The notes below the pieces were generated by a model. That model worked only from the letters and a program-made list of their open reading frames with translations, searched no databases and had not been told where the DNA came from. DNA of 64,000 nucleotides from Escherichia coli (GTDB taxonomy: Bacteria > Pseudomonadota > Gammaproteobacteria > Enterobacterales > Enterobacteriaceae): assembly GCA_032372955.1 (NCBI GenBank), contig GCA_032372955.1_4725.1; one strand, written 5' to 3'. The position numbers and the translations under genes were made by a program. Positions 3,942 through 35,570 of the stretch are shown piece by piece; within the stretch, counting starts at the first letter, position 1; each line of letters begins with the position of its first letter.

Positions 3942-6014
3942 TTACGCCGCTTCTGCTGCTTCGGTGTTACGACGCAGCCCGGTGATGGTAAACGTACCCA
4001 CGGTCATGCCTGGATCGCCGATCAGGCTGATATCGCCGTGATAGCTGAAGCCGTTGTAACCGTCTTCTTTATCCAGGTAGAAACGTCCCTTAACAGTCAC
4101 ATGGTCGTTGTAACGGCCTGTGGTGTATTCCAGGAAGCGTTCGCCCATCAGTTTCAGGAACAGCGTTTCATCCATTCCTGTAGTACCGGTGGTTTCTGCC
4201 CAGAGACGATAGCAGACACGAGTCAGATCGCAACCGATGATCACGTTGATCAACGAACGCCATACCGAACGGTCGTTATTGTAGATCGTGCCCCAAGCCG
4301 GGAAGAAGTTGGAATTACGGTTGTAGGTCTGAACATAGTTCAAGCCGTTTTCCCAATCACGATCACGGACCGTTGCGTTACGATACGTCTTGTTGATTTT
4401 ACGCATCGTTGTGACAACGTTACCAGGGTTGTTATCGATGCGGGTACCGCGGATAACACCATCCGAAGCACCCATGTAAGTTGCCAGTTTATTAGCAACT
4501 TCCAGCGTCAACGGAACTTTACCCAGGCTTGGCGCTTCGATGCTTTCACCGTATTGCATGAATACAGCGGCACGGCAAGCTGGGGTGTTGTAAAGCACGC
4601 TTTCTGGATGCAGACGATAGTAGTTACGCAGCATCGCACCCATGGAGCTTTCTTCATCGACATTCAGTTCCACACCCTTCCAGGTATGGGTTGACGCAAT
4701 GATCATGACATCCGGACGCAGAGACAAGACGTTTGCCATCGCCTTCTTCGTGTCGACTTTGTAACCAATGTCATACACGATGGAGAACGGATAGAAAGCC
4801 ATGTCTTCCAGATCTTCGCCCATTCTGCCGAACGATTCGAACTGCTGTTTCGCTAACGCATCGAAGGTATCCCAGTCGACGTCACCGTCGCTACCATCAA
4901 TTGCGTAGAAGGTGCTGGTACCATCAAAGATGACGCCGCCCTGATCCGCATCGAGAACTTCGATGGTTTGATAAGGGATGCCGTTGTAATCGACACCAGT
5001 GAAGATGTTCATCTGACCTTCGACGAATTCAACGTCGGTTAACAGATCGTTGTTAACTTTGCTTTCAGATTCGTACAGTTTCTTGACGACTTCATCGATG
5101 TTCTTCTGATAAAGATGCATCTGATCCATTGGAGCAAAGATCGGGGTATTACCCGTCTCATTATACTCGTAGGCATCAACGACCACTTTACCGAAGGACA
5201 GATCGGTTTCGTCATCAGGCTGGATAACACCTTCCTGCAACGCGAAGGTTTCTTGTTCCATGCCACTGATCGTACGAATGACCGTCGGCGCAGTACGTGA
5301 AGACTTGCGTTCCACGAACTGAATGCGGTACAGGAAAGCACCGATACGTTCGATGATATCGGTACGGGTAGGGTTGCTGCTCAGCGCGGTCGGTGCTTCC
5401 AGACGTAAGCCGATGTTGTCCCCTTCAGCACCACGCCAGCTCACCATTCCATCCAGAATAGGATAGTAGTTACTCTGGGTACCATCAGCTGCGGTCAGTT
5501 GTCCGATAACCACTTCATCTTTACCGAAAGCATTAGGTGCTACGGCATCTTTGTCGTGGTTAACAATCCAACGCATTTTCACCCCGTCAACGGTTTTATC
5601 GCCGTCAGGGATTTTGTTGCCGTCGGTGTCCTTCATAAAGGACCCGTCAGCGTTACGCTGGTAAACGACCAGTTTATCGGCGACCACTTCAACACCGATA
5701 CGGATGCGCGCTGCCGTTGCATCCGGCGCAACCAAACGTTTTGTGAAGATCGCGCTACCTGTAGAAGCCGCCTGGCGAGCAATCAGTGTTGCCGGAGAAG
5801 CGTACTTACTGCGGTAGTTCAGCATATCTTCACCGTAGACTGTAGACAGGGCGTCCCCCGTTAACAGCAAGGTGTCCTCTTTACCACGACCACCCTGAAT
5901 GAAAACATACGGGAGGTGAATGGGCGTGATCTCTGGGGCTGTAACCGGATCCGTGGTAAGACCCTCTTTAAAGCCCGTAAAAATCGCGCGAGGCGTGCTA
6001 TTCTTAAGCCTCAT
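3942..6014 (-). CDS. putative tail sheath protein
   Basis: 690-aa ORF with aaggag RBS, followed directly by a ~300-aa gene (sheath/tube arrangement typical of myoviruses). Size and context only. Confidence 0.4.
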   Translation of the reverse strand: MRLKNSTPRAIFTGFKEGLTTDPVTAPEITPIHLPYVFIQGGRGKEDTLLLTGDALSTVYGEDMLNYRSKYASPATLIARQAASTGSAIFTKRLVAPDATAARIRIGVEVVADKLVVYQRNADGSFMKDTDGNKIPDGDKTVDGVKMRWIVNHDKDAVAPNAFGKDEVVIGQLTAADGTQSNYYPILDGMVSWRGAEGDNIGLRLEAPTALSSNPTRTDIIERIGAFLYRIQFVERKSSRTAPTVIRTISGMEQETFALQEGVIQPDDETDLSFGKVVVDAYEYNETGNTPIFAPMDQMHLYQKNIDEVVKKLYESESKVNNDLLTDVEFVEGQMNIFTGVDYNGIPYQTIEVLDADQGGVIFDGTSTFYAIDGSDGDVDWDTFDALAKQQFESFGRMGEDLEDMAFYPFSIVYDIGYKVDTKKAMANVLSLRPDVMIIASTHTWKGVELNVDEESSMGAMLRNYYRLHPESVLYNTPACRAAVFMQYGESIEAPSLGKVPLTLEVANKLATYMGASDGVIRGTRIDNNPGNVVTTMRKINKTYRNATVRDRDWENGLNYVQTYNRNSNFFPAWGTIYNNDRSVWRSLINVIIGCDLTRVCYRLWAETTGTTGMDETLFLKLMGERFLEYTTGRYNDHVTVKGRFYLDKEDGYNGFSYHGDISLIGDPGMTVGTFTITGLRRNTEAAEAA

Positions 6015-30334: not shown

Positions 30335-32230
30335 ATGGGCTTAGACGTACGTAATAACGGTAACGATAATGTAGAAATTCGTGCAGCTGAAACCCGCACC
30401 GCACAACGTGCTGATGAGGCGCTGGAAACCGCTGCAGATTTTGCCGACCGTCCTAAAGTAACTCATACGATGCGTACGATCAACCGTACACTGAGCCGTC
30501 GTATCAGCCGTAATACCGGCTCCGAGCAGGTACTGAATCTCCGTCGTCTGATGGAGAAATATCTGGAAGATACCCAGTTCAAAGACGACTTCATCTTTGT
30601 TGCGGTTGACCCGAACCAGTACAGCGTACCGTATCCGACCCTGGTTGTTATGAGCGGTGCAAAAGTTGGTGACCATAACCACTTCTTCGGTTACGTCCTG
30701 CCGCTGGTTGCTGGTTTGGCTCCGCTGCCGCGTCGTGAAGAACAAGGTCCGCATGGTAACATTCTGGTACCGCGTACCTGGGTTGATAACCTGAACGGTA
30801 CGTTCATCAACGAAGTCATGGCGGCAATGTATTCAGCTATTGGCGGTAAGTCTAACGGTACTGTTCGTATCGCTGGTCTGGCTGTGGTGACCAATGAAAT
30901 CACCGCTGAATCTGCGCATCTGGCAACCACCCTGCTGTCTGCTGCAGATAACGCAATCCAAACCGCGATCGAAATCCGTCTCGGTGATAAACTGGGTCTG
31001 CCGCAGTTCAACCTGGGCATGATGGCAAGCGATCAGCCAATCAGCAGCGTTCAGTACAACACCAGCGGTATGCAGGACAGCGATATTGTTGGTAACCCTG
31101 TGCGTTCTGACATCACTGTAACTATCTCTAACCGCATCCGTCAAGCGATGAGCGATTACGATAGTCAACAGCGTCTGGTCGCCACCACCGGTTACATTGA
31201 CCTGACCTACAGCCCGCAGAACCCGACCTTCAACCAAGGCCCTGTTCTGGTTAACGGTTATCCGGTACCGCCGACTGTACAATACCAGCCGCGTTACGTG
31301 ATGACCAGCGCTTACCCGCTGGAGCTGGATGCGTTCACACCGAACAGCTTCGTGCTGGGTCTGATTGGTACCATCGCTACGCTGAACAGCGGCATGGCAT
31401 GGGCACAGTCTTTAATCAGCAACGCGGCTCGTGGTATTGGTCCGCATAACCCAGGTGCTCTGGCGATGGTACTGGATCCGGAAGTTACCGCACCGCTGGA
31501 TCTGTCTACTCAAACCAACGAGCAGATTTACAAGTTCCTGCAACAGGTACTGTATCCGTCTCTGCTGATTTCTATCGACGTACCGGAAGAAGGCGAATAC
31601 AGCTGGCTGCTGCGTATGATCCCGGCGGCTGAGAAGATCTATACGGGTAATGTTGAAGGTAAAGTTCAGGAAGTCTCTGAAGGCTACAAAGCACTTTACC
31701 GTGCCTTCGATGATACTACCCTGGGTTGCTTCAGCAAGAAATATCAATACGGTCAACCGCTGGTCTACGCTACCGGTAACCGTATCCCGCTGGGTTACTA
31801 CAACCACCAGGATGGTCACCGTCACGATATTCGTGATATGGACGATCTGTACATGATGAACATCACTAACCCTGATACCGTAGAAGCTTGGGAAGACAGC
31901 TTCGACCGTACCGATATGACGATGTCTCAGCGTGTTGTCGCTCGTCACGAAATCATCGATCGTGTTCTGTCTGGTAGCTGGGAACAAACCGGCTGGGCAA
32001 TGCGTTACGACTTCGATCCGTTAGCACTGCAGGCGCTGATCGAAGCTGCGGCTGATGCTGGCTTCACCATCCGTCCTGAGAACATCCAGCATCTGGCAGG
32101 TACCGCTGTTCGTGGTAACATGGCAGCACGTGCTCGTGGTCTGGGTAACATCTCCGGTAACATCTACGCACGTAGCGATCGCCCGAATGTTGGCGGTAAC
32201 AACATGGGTGGGGCATTCAACCTGTTCTAA
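30335..32230 (+). CDS. chmA: putative chimallin (phage nucleus shell protein, ChmA-like)
   Basis: 631 aa (about 70 kDa); very strong codon bias; TATATTAC element upstream; sits immediately upstream of the RNAP beta-prime N-terminal gene and about 9 kb from phuZ, matching the recalled phiKZ gp54-gp55 order. No sequence comparison was possible. Confidence 0.55.
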   Translation: MGLDVRNNGNDNVEIRAAETRTAQRADEALETAADFADRPKVTHTMRTINRTLSRRISRNTGSEQVLNLRRLMEKYLEDTQFKDDFIFVAVDPNQYSVPYPTLVVMSGAKVGDHNHFFGYVLPLVAGLAPLPRREEQGPHGNILVPRTWVDNLNGTFINEVMAAMYSAIGGKSNGTVRIAGLAVVTNEITAESAHLATTLLSAADNAIQTAIEIRLGDKLGLPQFNLGMMASDQPISSVQYNTSGMQDSDIVGNPVRSDITVTISNRIRQAMSDYDSQQRLVATTGYIDLTYSPQNPTFNQGPVLVNGYPVPPTVQYQPRYVMTSAYPLELDAFTPNSFVLGLIGTIATLNSGMAWAQSLISNAARGIGPHNPGALAMVLDPEVTAPLDLSTQTNEQIYKFLQQVLYPSLLISIDVPEEGEYSWLLRMIPAAEKIYTGNVEGKVQEVSEGYKALYRAFDDTTLGCFSKKYQYGQPLVYATGNRIPLGYYNHQDGHRHDIRDMDDLYMMNITNPDTVEAWEDSFDRTDMTMSQRVVARHEIIDRVLSGSWEQTGWAMRYDFDPLALQALIEAAADAGFTIRPENIQHLAGTAVRGNMAARARGLGNISGNIYARSDRPNVGGNNMGGAFNLF

Positions 32231-32322: not shown

Positions 32323-33672
32323 ATGGCCATCATGCTCGATATCGTGAGTTTCGATAGACAGCTCGCAGAACTTCCTTTTACGCCGATTTTGTTGAATGAT
32401 TACGATACAAAAGTCGTCGAAGAGAAGAAGAAATTAAACAGTTTTATTACCCGTGTTTACTCCAGCGATACGTTGGATATCACGCCACAATGTGGTTGTG
32501 GTTTCTACAATCGTGGTGAGCTACTCGGCACGGTGTGTCCAAACTGTAAAACGGTTGTAACCTACCCAGCAGAACAAGAGATTCGTTCGACGGTTTGGGC
32601 GCGTGTTCCTGAAGGAATCGATGCGTTCATTAACCCGTTGGTCCATCTCGTGCTGGCAAGCGAGTTGAATATCAAAAGCTTTGAAACGATGACGTGGCTA
32701 ATTGATGCCAGTTACCGTCCAAATGTAAAACGACCCATCGAACTCAAGAACTATCTGGAGCAGCAATTCGATGTATTCGGGATACGGCGCGGTGTAAATA
32801 GCTTTATACAGAACTTCGATCGCATCATGGAGATCTTGTATAAAGGACCTACGTTACGTGGACCGAAGAACACGGAGAAAGTTGACACACTACGAGAATT
32901 CATCCGTATCCATCGTGATAAGTTCTTCAGTCAGTATATCAGCTTTCCTGCGGCCATGATGTTCGTTATCGAGAATACGCCAACCGGTCGTTATGCGGAT
33001 AGCAAAATGGAAGGTGCGATCGATGCTATCGGTACGTTGAACAGTATCTATCATCCAACAACACCTTTGAGCGCCAGAAAGAAAGAAAACTGGATGGCGA
33101 AAGTGCAATTGAAGCTGCTGCAATACCATGCGGCGATTTTCGATGAGTTCATCGGTAAGAAGAAAGGTATTACACGTAAAAACATATTAGGTACATTACA
33201 TCCATTCACCACGCGTACCGTAATCAGTTCGATAACAGCGAACCATCGTTATTATCATCTGCATTTCCCATACGCGCCATTTACTTTAACCAATAAAGAA
33301 CATATCCAATCCAAGTTATTCCATCGTGGTTATTCGCCAAGAGCAGCACGTGCGTTCGTTGCGGAACATGTTCGCAATTATCATCCGATGATGAGCGAGC
33401 TGCATGATGAGCTTATTGCTGATACACCGTTCGATGGGATTGTGTGTGGTTTTGTTCGAAACCCATCACTTGACCGAAGCAGTAACCAATGTCTTGAAAT
33501 CACCAAGGTTAAACGCGATCCGCAGGATAACACCATCGGGTTAAGCGTGATGATCTTGAAAGGGTCGTTAGGCCCAGTAACGCAGAAATGTTGTTACGAG
33601 GAACTCCCTAATGCGGGAACCTACTTAGAGCCTTGTCCACCAACCACGTCTGGGAACAGAGTGTGGGGCTGA
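32323..33672 (+). CDS. multisubunit RNA polymerase beta-prime-like subunit, N-terminal fragment (exon 1; ORF as drawn reads into an intron)
   Basis: Zn-finger CGCGFYNRGELLGTVCPNCK aligns to E. coli beta-prime C70-C88; RTVISS (cf RSVITV) and RNPSLDR (cf RAPTLHR) follow; the ORF stops before any NADFDGD and group I intron cores start at about 33685. True exon 1 end is probably near 33565. Confidence 0.7.
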   Translation: MAIMLDIVSFDRQLAELPFTPILLNDYDTKVVEEKKKLNSFITRVYSSDTLDITPQCGCGFYNRGELLGTVCPNCKTVVTYPAEQEIRSTVWARVPEGIDAFINPLVHLVLASELNIKSFETMTWLIDASYRPNVKRPIELKNYLEQQFDVFGIRRGVNSFIQNFDRIMEILYKGPTLRGPKNTEKVDTLREFIRIHRDKFFSQYISFPAAMMFVIENTPTGRYADSKMEGAIDAIGTLNSIYHPTTPLSARKKENWMAKVQLKLLQYHAAIFDEFIGKKKGITRKNILGTLHPFTTRTVISSITANHRYYHLHFPYAPFTLTNKEHIQSKLFHRGYSPRAARAFVAEHVRNYHPMMSELHDELIADTPFDGIVCGFVRNPSLDRSSNQCLEITKVKRDPQDNTIGLSVMILKGSLGPVTQKCCYEELPNAGTYLEPCPPTTSGNRVWG

Positions 33673-34856
33673 ACTAATCATTCAGGTACGGTAAAAGCGG
33701 CAAGGATTGGGGAATCCGCAGCGAAGTCTCCAGAACGGAGATGTGCTCAACGACTATCGCTTACGGGCGTTAGGGCCAAGCGGTGTGGGAAACCACCGGT
33801 CATTTGACCGCCGAAATGGGAGCCCCGACCAGATAATGCTGAGGGTGAAAGATATAGTCTCTTCTTACGTGAAAGACGTAAGCAGTACCTTAGGTACGGG
33901 TATGGAGTAGCGAACCATACTGAAGATTTAGATAATGCAGATTTCAGTTTTTTCAATTAAATCAATAACTTACGATGATTTATTGATACCGTCGGGATCT
34001 GGTTTCTGGTAACAGGAACATAGTTAAAACTCTCTAATTGACGGGAAGTTTCTGTAATCGGACTACACACCAACTCATCGTGGTGACACAGATGAGGGCC
34101 AGCGTAATGAACTGGGTACGGTAAAAGAGGTAGGACGGGAATAATCCGCAGCGAAGCATCTCAACAAGAACGTTCACCTGATTATAGGAATCCACGAATG
34201 TTCGTTAAGATGTGTGCTCACAGACTATCGAAAGACGCGATGTCGAGTAGAGTAGGCTCTGTTAAACACAGACCCAAACGGGAGACTCCTCGCAACGAGG
34301 ATGAAGATATAGTCGATAAACAGCGACGGGGATGCTTAATCATAGGCCCTGCCTTCCGAAAGGAAGAGCTTGGATTCCGTGAATTGCTGGGAAGGGCTAA
34401 GGCCGCTACGCCTCGTAAGAGGAACCGATAAGGTAGAAACAAGGTAGCGGATGTACGCGGCTTCAATGACAATCCCTTCGGGGATGCCTACCGTACATGA
34501 CAATGTTCGATCAGCAGCGAAGCTCCGTTTAGGAGAACGTTCAACGAATACGTGGTCTCAAGCGAGATCCAGCGCGGAAGTCCTACGTTCCATTTGGAAT
34601 ATGGATAAGATGTATTCTGGACATTCCGGTAACACCGGAAGCTGCAGGTAAAGCTGCGGGTATGAGGTAGCGACTCATGCTGAACACTACGATGAACAAC
34701 CATATCGTCCCAGACATTTGGACTGCGAAACATTTCGGGCGTTTTCGACCCGAACTCGGTATGATGGATAATAACGTACCTTTTAAGGTATCTAAGAAAT
34801 GTGAACATCAGTCACCGGTTATTTCTACCATTGACTGTTGGTTCAACGAATTCGTG
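33566..34856 (+). other. non-coding region with two or more tandem ORF-less group I intron cores
   Basis: Core 1: P-like 33685-33705, Q-like aatccgcagcgaag 33713-33726, R-like gctcaacgactatcg 33745-33759, S-like aagatatagtc 33849-33859. Core 2: P-like 34115-34134, Q-like 34144-34157, R-like gctcacagactatcg 34216-34230, S-like aagatatagtc 34304-34314. R/S closely match Tetrahymena GUUCACAGACUA / AAGAUAUAGUC and pair GACTA with TAGTC. Third partial Q-like copy at 34510-34522. Boundaries approximate. Confidence 0.7.
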
Positions 34857-34931
34857 GAGGGCGATGACGTAGAACCTTATCTTGACGAAATAGAAGCAAC
34901 TAACAACCATTGCTAAAGGAGGACGCCTGTA

Positions 34932-35570
34932 ATGGCGCAAATATTTACAGGTGGACGAGACAGTTATCGTGCACTGAGGTTCGGAGAAATGTCCTCCGGT
35001 CTCGATAAAAGCTTTATGGAGTACGGCCACAAGCTGATGAATAGCCTCGGCGGCGCAAGCGAACACGTAAAGCATTTTTACGCTGAATCGTTAGCAACGT
35101 TCGACGCATTCAATCAGATAAACTATGCTGAACTCCGTAAGACGCTGTTGAGACAATCGGAGAACATCTTCCATGACGATGTGGTTATGCCATGTATCAC
35201 CGTGGAAGACTTCCGTGCCGCAAACGGCATATCTCGACAACTGATCATGGCGTGCCCTGAATTACGTACGAAGGCACAGCGTCAGCAGATCGAGGGGTAT
35301 GCTGAATGTTACACCGATCCGTTCAGTACGTTCAGTAATGAACTGCATCCGGACTACATGCGTGTAACAGACGGTGTGTTGATAACCGATCCTAAAACAG
35401 ATGAAACGTGGAGTATTTCCTACGAGTTTGATGATCATGAACTCGACCTACCAGAACTGAGTATCGATGATAAAGCAATTACATTAACCAACTGGGACAT
35501 GGCACGTATCCTACTGCAAGTTCCTGATGGCGAAGATTTCACCAATATCGCCGGTGGTAAATTAGGTTAA
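34932..35570 (+). CDS. hypothetical protein
   Basis: 212 aa; aaggagga RBS. Confidence 0.55.
   Translation: MAQIFTGGRDSYRALRFGEMSSGLDKSFMEYGHKLMNSLGGASEHVKHFYAESLATFDAFNQINYAELRKTLLRQSENIFHDDVVMPCITVEDFRAANGISRQLIMACPELRTKAQRQQIEGYAECYTDPFSTFSNELHPDYMRVTDGVLITDPKTDETWSISYEFDDHELDLPELSIDDKAITLTNWDMARILLQVPDGEDFTNIAGGKLG

Follow-up and report, generated by a model that had tools for sequence, protein, structure and literature searches.

The window analyzed here (the whole 64-kb stretch from contig GCA_032372955.1_4725.1, assembly GCA_032372955.1) belongs to a Goslar-like chimallivirus, and this study concerns its interrupted gene for a beta-prime-like RNA polymerase subunit. In BLAST, the region 32323-35570 showed 97.7-98% identity to the nucleus-forming jumbo phage vB_EcoM_Goslar of Escherichia (locus L001, NC_048170). 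The upstream open reading frame (ORF; 30335-32230) is the counterpart of the Goslar nuclear shell protein, chimallin. The following ORF (32323-33672; 449 amino acids [aa]) encodes the start of the beta-prime-like subunit and stops before any NADFDGD motif, as a first-pass annotation made from the DNA letters had stated and as translation confirmed. The gene itself runs on to a stop codon at 34916. With a probability of about 90%, we propose that three complete ORF-less group I introns, predicted to be self-splicing, interrupt its NADFDGD codons, with two exons of 13 nucleotides (nt) between them. The proposed arrangement is as follows:

32323-33565, plus strand: exon 1, 1243 nt, 3' end ATC TTG AAA GGG T, placed by translation and by the read-through in Goslar
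33566-33931, plus strand: intron 1 (I1), 366 nt, ORF-less, group I, IA-like
33932-33944, plus strand: exon 2, 13 nt, AT AAT GCA GAT TT, codes for (Y)NAD(F) with the first catalytic Asp
33945-34323, plus strand: intron 2 (I2), 379 nt, ORF-less, group I, IA-like, without P9
34324-34336, plus strand: exon 3, 13 nt, C GAC GGG GAT GCT, codes for (F)DGDA with the second and third catalytic Asp
34337-34691, plus strand: intron 3 (I3), 355 nt, ORF-less, group I
34692-34916, plus strand: exon 4, 225 nt, ATG AAC AAC CAT ... TGC TAA, codes for MNNHIVPD...NNHC, gene end

Conceptual joining of 32323-33565, 33932-33944, 34324-34336, and 34692-34916 gave 1494 nt in frame, encoding a 497-aa protein that contains LKGYNADFDGDAMNNH (longer excerpt, GLSVMILKGYNADFDGDAMNNHIVPD). 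Exon 2 restores both the frame and the motif, and corresponds to the contiguous TAT AAT GCC GAC TT of Goslar; the Phe codon of NADFDGD is split by I2. The spliced protein was aligned with phiKZ gp55 (PDB 7OGP_A; E 1e-74) over residues 21-476, and the alignment was unbroken across all three junctions. It matched PF00623 with 36.9 bits (cut-off, 25.3), whereas the unspliced ORF had no PF00623 match. Homology and the Mg-binding motif NADFDGD together place the spliced protein in the gp55 family, and by these sequence comparisons the interrupted gene is the homologue of phiKZ gp55, the N-terminal beta-prime subunit (beta-prime N) of the non-virion RNA polymerase (nvRNAP).

Uninterrupted relatives read as the spliced product does. 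The pattern NADFDGDx[M/L]N was present in 13 of 13 uninterrupted homologues checked, all metagenomic. P0002 (496 aa, 65% identical) reads LILKGYNADFDGDAMNHH, and NADFDGDAMNHH in the region of exon 3, while P0003 reads AYNADFDGDEMNNH. Synteny is also kept: chimallin is followed by beta-prime N and then by a 212-aa ORF, the same order as in the intronless relative L004, where the sequence is GGG TAT AAC GCT GAC TTT GAT GGT GAT GCC ATG AAC. The predicted junction string of the spliced mRNA is TTGAAAGGGT^ATAATGCAGATTT^CGACGGGGATGCT^ATGAACAACC (carets mark junctions and insertion points throughout), and the junction of exons 3 and 4 is predicted as GGGGATGCT^ATGAACAAC. The spliced protein is predicted to yield the junction-spanning tryptic peptide GYNADFDGDAMNNHIVPDIWTAK; an unspliced fragment would end with SGNRVWG at the stop at 33672.

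Predicted intron boundaries and anatomy

The interruption, 33566-34691, comprises 1126 nt. The first-pass annotation had proposed tandem group I introns near the catalytic center of the beta-prime gene, in about 1.3 kb of noncoding DNA starting at 33566. Tandem, endonuclease-free group I introns that interrupt the beta-prime gene at its catalytic center are supported, and 33566 is exactly the first base of I1. Other points needed correction: there are three introns instead of two, they lie inside the NADFDGD codons and not merely near them, and the interval holds two 13-nt exons and ends at 34691 instead of 34856.

In a base-by-base helix check, P2, P3, P4, P6, P7, and P8 were found in I1, I2, and I3, and the core helices were fully or almost fully complementary in all three. 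P3, P4, P6, P7, and P8 follow each other in the canonical order with the P3/P7 pseudoknot, and the strand order P3-P4-P4'-P7-P3'-P7' was seen in the seven introns compared. The 5' strands of P4 are at 33612-33617 in I1 and at 34039-34045 in I2. In I3, P3 is UUCCGUG/CGCGGAA and P4 is UGCUGG/UCAGCA. I1 and I3 additionally have P9, P9.1, and P9.2, and their similar 3' ends align in register (repeat D1).

A U.G wobble at the cleavage site in P1 is a nearly constant feature of group I introns. In each of the three introns, a P1 with such a wobble defines the 5' splice site, and a terminal G together with a P10 pairing between guide and downstream exon defines the 3' end. In I1, P1 is GGGUC (33562-66)/GGCCC (33571-75) with the wobble U33565.G33572, P10 consists of 5 base pairs (bp), UAAUG (33933-37)/CGUUA (33566-70), P7 is GACUA (33752-56)/UAGUC (33855-59), and the terminal G is G33931. 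I2 has a 7-bp P1, CAGAUUU (33938-44)/GGAUCUG (33995-34001), with the wobble U33944.G33995, and a G+C-rich 6-bp P10, CGACGG (34324-29)/CCGUCG (33989-94). Since this P10 strand lies directly 5' of the P1 strand, the two form a continuous 13-nt guide complementary to the ligated exons. P7 of I2 is GACUA (34223-27)/UAGUC (34310-14), and its terminal G is G34323. In I3, P1 is GCUUA (34334-38)/UAGGC (34343-47) with the wobble U34336.G34345, P10 is AUGA (34692-95)/UCAU (34340-43; 4 bp), P7 is GAAUA (34546-50)/UAUUC (34613-17), and the terminal G is G34691. The guides of the three introns are mutually distinct. The small exons are densely used: exon 2 is fully tiled, with nt 2-6 serving in P10 of I1 and nt 7-13 in P1 of I2, and nt 1-6 and 11-13 of exon 3 serve in P10 of I2 and P1 of I3, respectively. 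Thirteen nucleotides may be near the minimum for an exon that provides P10 for one ribozyme and P1 for the next.

Hairpins lie between the P7 5' strand and the P3 3' strand in all three introns (33758-33810 in I1, 34228-34275 in I2, and 34552-34570 in I3). Extra helices at this place, P7.1/P7.2, reportedly mark subgroup IA (T4 td/nrdB type) in the 1990 classification by Michel and Westhof. By this feature, which all three introns show, we call them IA-like.

The first-pass annotation had listed two near-identical sets of core elements P, Q, R, and S. The last three are where they had been placed: Q, AATCCGCAGCGAAG, which is the 3' strand of P4, at 33713 and 34143 and, with one mismatch, at 34509; R, TGTGCTCAaCGACTATCG/TGTGCTCACAGACTATCG, at 33742 and 34213; and S, AAGATATAGTC, at 33849 and 34304. 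The pairing of GACTA with TAGTC between R and S is present in both sets as GACUA/UAGUC. The sets are not near-identical, however, since overall the introns share 57-59% identity. The element apparently taken as P, the 13-mer GGTACGGTAAAAG at 33685-33697 and 34115-34127, is not P, because the P4 5' strands lie elsewhere (see above). This 13-mer is identical in the P5-P4' regions of I1 and I2 and is perhaps a candidate tertiary contact; alleles of the two introns differ at its sixth base, which is C, T, or G. What had been described as a third, partial Q-like copy is in fact part of the complete I3, whose R and S elements were hidden by the co-varied P4 and P7.

Several other arrangements were considered and rejected. 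The P1 that the Rfam alignment suggests for I1 (GAUGAUCUU with AGGGUCGUU) would put the splice site inside exon 1, contradicting the intron-less junction of Goslar. A 5' splice site of I3 after U34333 would give DGD^MNNH; DGDx[M/L]N is found in every homologue, and the GAC of Goslar and L008 leaves no U before that site. A 3' splice site of I3 after CUG (34682) would give DGD-NTT-MNNH, again against the homologues' DGDx[M/L]N, and the 3' ends of I1 and I3 are in register. Goslar and L008 carry CGACGGTGACGCT at exon 3, so that a U precedes the splice site in every allele only if the site lies after GCT. A twintron is contradicted by the 13-nt segments, which are needed for NADFDGD and the frame, and by the P1 and P10 pairings to exon sequence, which are separate for each intron. 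We also rejected an origin of I1-I3 by tandem duplication: their pairwise identity is 57-59%, with only short core stretches in common, indicating separate acquisitions.

The Rfam model RF00028 was used in permissive E-value mode on 33300-35100. I2 was matched over the full model with 44 bits (33996-34323; E 1.8e-9 locally, 6.3e-8 window-wide), and the match ended exactly at 34323. I1 was also matched over the full model, with 30.4 bits (33545-33881; E 2.1e-5 locally, 7.4e-4 window-wide). These were the only RF00028 matches with E <= 0.1 in the 64 kb. I3 gave a partial match from P3 to P3' (34375-34579; 17.6 bits, E 0.14). The significant covariance-model hits that the first-pass annotation had expected were thus obtained for I2 and I1, all scores being below 50 bits, and I3 was detected only partially. 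For comparison, I2 of Goslar, which is annotated as Intron_gpI in GenBank, scored 46.9, the LucasX intron 54.7, and the T2P intron 80.4.

The z-scores of minimum free energy (MFE) against shuffled sequences were -1.3 for I1, -2.65 for I2, and -3.04 for I3. They serve as supporting evidence only, because they are weak alone and blind to the pseudoknot. The unconstrained MFE fold of I3 recovered P2, P3, P4, P8, and P9.

Covariation and intron content in relatives

Comparison with related loci showed changes on both sides of predicted pairs, which we take as evidence of selection on the structures. P1 of I2 differs between the window (exon CAGAUUU, guide GGAUCUG) and Goslar (CCGACUU, GAGUCGG) by two double compensatory changes, in which an A-U and a U-A pair are each replaced by C-G, and by one change of U.G to U-A, tying synonymous exon positions to the guide sequence. 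For I3, covariation was counted in a six-sequence alignment using our own structure model; MAFFT alignments of distantly related introns (A3, A6) were excluded from pair counts, since P4'/P6 was misaligned in them. In the I3 family, 97.4% of cells were paired, and 30 pairs were changed on both sides, compared to 6.6 +/- 2.2 after shuffling (0/500) and 1-2 in slid controls. Its P7 helix was 100% paired, one position being variously AU, GC, or UA. P4 and P7 of I3 have both co-varied (P7, GAAUA/UAUUC). Across seven introns, P7 was GACUA/UAGUC, GAAUA/UAUUC, GAGUA/UACUC, or GAUCA/UGAUC and always complementary. The existence of four different P7 sequences explains the poor RF00028 score of I3 and why its R and S elements escaped the first-pass annotation.

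The I3 orthologue in L007 (IMG/VR 3300011560; IMGVR_UViG_3300011560_000001) is 85% identical. Of its 52 substitutions, 22 are in unpaired positions, 26 keep a pair, and 4 break one; 11 pairs are doubly compensated. Most substitutions in I1 of L005 and L008 fall in loops or bulges, or turn G.U pairs into G-C or A-U pairs. The P9.1 hairpin of I1 has been swapped in L008 for a different sequence that still forms a hairpin.

BLAST of the window against the Goslar locus gave three blocks. Positions 33564-33931 are absent from Goslar, and the rest is collinear except for 1065 nt found only in Goslar, which carry the HNH/NUMOD1 endonuclease gene gp186 and are absent from the window. Lacking I1, Goslar reads ATC CTC AAA GGT TAT AAT GCC GAC TT^C AGT, and this read-through fixes I1 at exactly 33566-33931, after U33565 and ending with G33931. 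I3 is 98.6% identical in Goslar. Altogether, Goslar-like phages showed four allele states. No intron is present in L004, a more distant syntenic relative. Goslar has I2 with its endonuclease gene and I3. The window, L005 (Logan SRR5130533, ~99% identical), and L008 (IMG/VR 3300045988, 96.8%) share the three-intron layout with I1, ORF-less I2, and I3. Finally, L007 has neither I1 nor I2 and reads GAC TTT GAC GGT GAT GCC; it contains an intron A and an intron B separated by an 18-nt exon.

Some further observations were made at these loci. The I3 orthologue of L007 (4602-4976) is preceded by C and not U (GAT GCC^AGAGCC), so that its P1 would carry a C-G pair at the splice site; this reflects a tolerated departure from the rule, an allele with impaired splicing, or else an error in sequencing. 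Intron A of L007 (4252-4601) is inserted after the NA codons (AAC GCT^GAC). Its 5' part and core are I3-like (77% identical, same GCU/GGC P1), and over its final 31 nt it matches the 3' end of I1 in the window without a difference. This mosaic points to recombination of introns residing together, or else to ectopic insertion behind a further GCU. Just upstream of I1, the synonymous sites differ between the window (33553-33565; TTG AAA GGG T), Goslar (L001 2729-2741; CTC AAA GGT T), and L007 (CTT AAG GGA T), and the GGG codon of the window pairs with the guide GCCC. Exon wobble positions thus track intron presence, reflecting either a co-conversion tract or selection for P1.

Predicted splicing and alternative readings

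We propose that a single precursor transcript (32323-34916) would carry the three different ORF-less introns, each folding separately into a ribozyme core made up of P3-P8 and including the P3/P7 pseudoknot. The internal guide would pair with the upstream exon end in P1, with the U.G wobble at the cleavage site, and the same guide region would align the downstream exon in P10. Guanosine would attack after U33565, U33944, and U34336, and exon ligation would follow G33931, G34323, and G34691. Three independent standard two-step transesterifications would in this way join exons of 1243, 13, 13, and 225 nt, and the mature mRNA would encode the 497-aa protein with an intact Mg-binding NADFDGD. We infer that splicing occurs and would be autocatalytic. 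Inclusion of the 13-nt exons would be obligatory, because skipping both (26 nt) shifts the frame and deletes the Asp triad; skipping either one removes part of the NADFDGD codons. In engineered tandem introns, distinct guides favor exon inclusion over skipping (PMC10136302).

Several points weigh against three self-splicing introns. At the Rfam gathering threshold, there was no match in the 64-kb window (44, 30.4, and 17.6 bits versus the RF00028 cut-off of 50 bits, which is an annotation threshold and not a structural criterion). The MFE of I1 was not significantly below that of its shuffles (z -1.3), and in some relatives, substitutions break pairs of peripheral helices that had been predicted by energy alone. 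P9 is absent from I2, leaving 9 nt between P7 and the terminal G, and the exon part of P1 in I3 has only 3 bp (GCU/GGC). For an I2 without P9 or an I3 with a 3-bp exon P1, unaided self-splicing could be inefficient. The splicing of I1-I3 itself is a prediction from sequence and anatomy.

These weak spots lend themselves to a different reading, in which the introns are removed in vivo and at least one of them, with I2 and I3 as the candidates, does not self-splice efficiently and needs a protein cofactor or the conditions of the phage nucleus; the serial steps would then throttle nvRNAP production. Between P7 and its terminal G, I2 has only GAUAAACAG, where the Goslar copy has a 14-bp P9 stem; the exon P1 of I3 is limited to GCU/GGC; and some predicted introns of Bastillevirinae phages were spliced in vivo and not in vitro (PMC11878797). 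On the other hand, the unusually strong 6-bp, G+C-rich P10 of I2 beside its 7-bp P1 could define the 3' splice site without P9, and no candidate maturase is encoded within the introns. We consider a need for help rather unlikely.

Far less probable is that only two introns function, as the first-pass annotation had proposed, 34337-34691 being a decayed remnant, the frame staying unrestored, and the gene being expressed as the 449-aa fragment plus a 79-aa ORF (34677-34916). The weak and partial RF00028 match of I3 (17.6 bits, E 0.14) would fit such a remnant, as would the Goslar annotation, where the 79-aa ORF appears as a hypothetical protein of its own (gp185). However, I3 has all core helices and 30 covarying pairs, and a G-C pair occupies the position of its P7 that we take to form the guanosine-binding site in Tetrahymena. 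Its conservation in Goslar, which is propagated in the laboratory, is 98.6%. If it were not removed, intron sequence would follow the third Asp codon, whereas its removal gives DGDAMNNH as in the uninterrupted homologues. The 79-aa ORF begins at an ATG within the P9.2 stem of I3 and is an ORF-calling artefact.

We give almost no credence to a pseudogene or assembly artefact with the polymerase function supplied by another gene: there are in-frame stops after exon 1 and no public gene model spans the region, but three independent assemblies differing by 1-3% share the layout, the catalytic codons are preserved in the micro-exons, whose alleles differ only synonymously, the guides co-vary with the exons, and synteny with the intronless L004 is conserved.

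Endonucleases, the insertion hot spot, and known systems

An encoded homing endonuclease (HNH, GIY-YIG, LAGLIDADG, or His-Cys) was found in none of I1-I3. Six ORFs of 66-106 aa inside the interval, on either strand, had no endonuclease Pfam domain, in agreement with the endonuclease-free introns of the first-pass annotation, and no homologue of gp186 was present in the 64 kb. In Goslar, the 336-aa HNH/NUMOD1 endonuclease gp186 sits in the 14-bp P9 stem of I2 (TTACGTGCACCGAC/GTCGGTGCACGTAA). In the window, this whole stem is replaced by ACA. We infer that endonuclease-driven homing into a conserved target brought the introns here, and that their endonuclease genes have since been lost or were never present.

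Relatives of I1 were also found outside this gene. Positions 33747-33924 are ~70% identical to sequences that overlap DNA polymerase genes in the Escherichia phages TH18, 18-1-2, and Av-05, next to an HNH endonuclease gene in the last of these; the sequences are presumably introns. In the core (33713-33816), identity to Av-05 positions 46-152 is 83.5%. This points to a circulation of related introns among unrelated coliphages.

In the close relatives and other chimalliviruses examined, there are six insertion points within ~30 nt:

GCT^CCA: LucasX intron
T^AT: I1
AAT^GCG: phiKZ-type T2P intron; phiKZ itself has the HNH gene gp56 there
GCT^GAC: intron A of L007
TT^C: I2
GCT^ATG: I3

Among 73 metagenomic clusters of beta-prime N, 14 consist of ORFs whose ends fall inside the NADFDGD codons or directly behind them, at 5 or more positions; those among P0025-P0065 stop after NA, NAD, DFD, DFDG, or DFDGD. 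The three intron configurations in close relatives, together with the roughly one-fifth of homologues that are cut, mark the active-site codons as a hot spot of intron turnover. In P0052, the ORF ends at RN^PSL, a hint that the conserved RNPSL motif may hold another insertion site. The hot spot is relevant to the part that intron endonucleases were recently proposed to play in the competition between nucleus-forming phages. It is possible, although we lean against it, that the endonuclease-free stack is kept by selection as occupied homing sites and is not inert debris. If so, introns in three adjacent targets, in the most conserved 30 nt of an essential polymerase gene, would confer immunity to intron endonucleases (gp186 of Goslar, for instance) that Goslar-like phages bring into the same cell. 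Such protection would mirror, on the side of defense, the interference competition that has been shown for PhiPA3 gp210.

The closest known locus is gp247/gp186/gp185 of Goslar itself. It is orthologous and ~98% identical, with I2, I3, and the 13-nt exon 3 present and I1 absent (L001 1501-4789 corresponds to 32323-34916). Its public annotation has one Intron_gpI feature and three separate ORFs, and no spliced gene; gp247 is annotated as ending with NADFSFFN and a stop. I3 (L001 4210-4564) and the 13-nt exon CGACGGTGACGCT (4197-4209) are unannotated, leaving the nvRNAP beta-prime N subunit without a correct gene model. For a model nucleus-forming phage, the public record thus shows a truncated ORF, an endonuclease gene, and a "hypothetical protein" in place of one essential polymerase subunit. 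The locus described here shows how to call the spliced 497-aa gene model.

phiKZ gp55/gp56/gp56.1 represents the same gene family and target motif. Group I introns are known in the phiKZ RNA polymerase genes gp55/56, gp71-73, and gp178-180 (PMC11512511). The single intron of the phiKZ type carries an HNH endonuclease, and in Phikzvirus T2P it lies between the N and A codons of NADFDGD (AAT^GCG). I1 is the closest to this type (68-72% identity), and the 3' end of the T2P intron, GGGTATGG..CGA.CCATACTGAAC, resembles those of I1 and I3. In phiKZ relatives, endonuclease-containing, degenerate, and ORF-less versions coexist. The window differs in having three introns instead of one, at T^AT, TT^C, and GCT^ATG, none with an endonuclease gene, and two 13-nt exons.

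In PhiPA3, the intron endonuclease gp210 is associated with a group I intron at a conserved site of a virion RNA polymerase subunit gene (Birkholz et al. 2024, PMC11620839), and the intron-occupied allele resists the endonuclease, which targets the empty site (PMC11620839). That system involves a different subunit, a single intron, and an active endonuclease, whereas the introns of the window encode none.

Small exons between introns have precedents. According to PMC10136302, which cites Landthaler and Shub 1999, orf142 of phage Twort has three group I introns, of which two are related to each other, and a 23-nt exon; the same source gives a 34-nt exon in Coxiella 23S rRNA. The Twort exon is, by this account, partly skipped, whereas the window has two consecutive 13-nt exons whose inclusion would be obligatory and guides that are mutually distinct. 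Mini-exons of less than ~4 codons between group I/II introns are regular in mitochondrial genes (PMC10352661). Those are organellar and usually depend on maturases or other protein help, whereas the present case is a bacteriophage gene. In the limited literature collection searched, including the papers on the Goslar genome and the chimallivirus core genome, we found no account of the Goslar-type locus as a spliced gene, of the triple arrangement, or of two consecutive 13-nt exons in a phage. Three ribozymes 13 nt apart would offer a natural test bed for neighbor folding without interference, for the minimum exon that serves two guides, and for the avoidance of exon skipping. Taken singly, the introns are ordinary: all are of the IA-like group I type, and targets of this kind are known. 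What sets the locus apart is their density, three in 26 nt of coding sequence.

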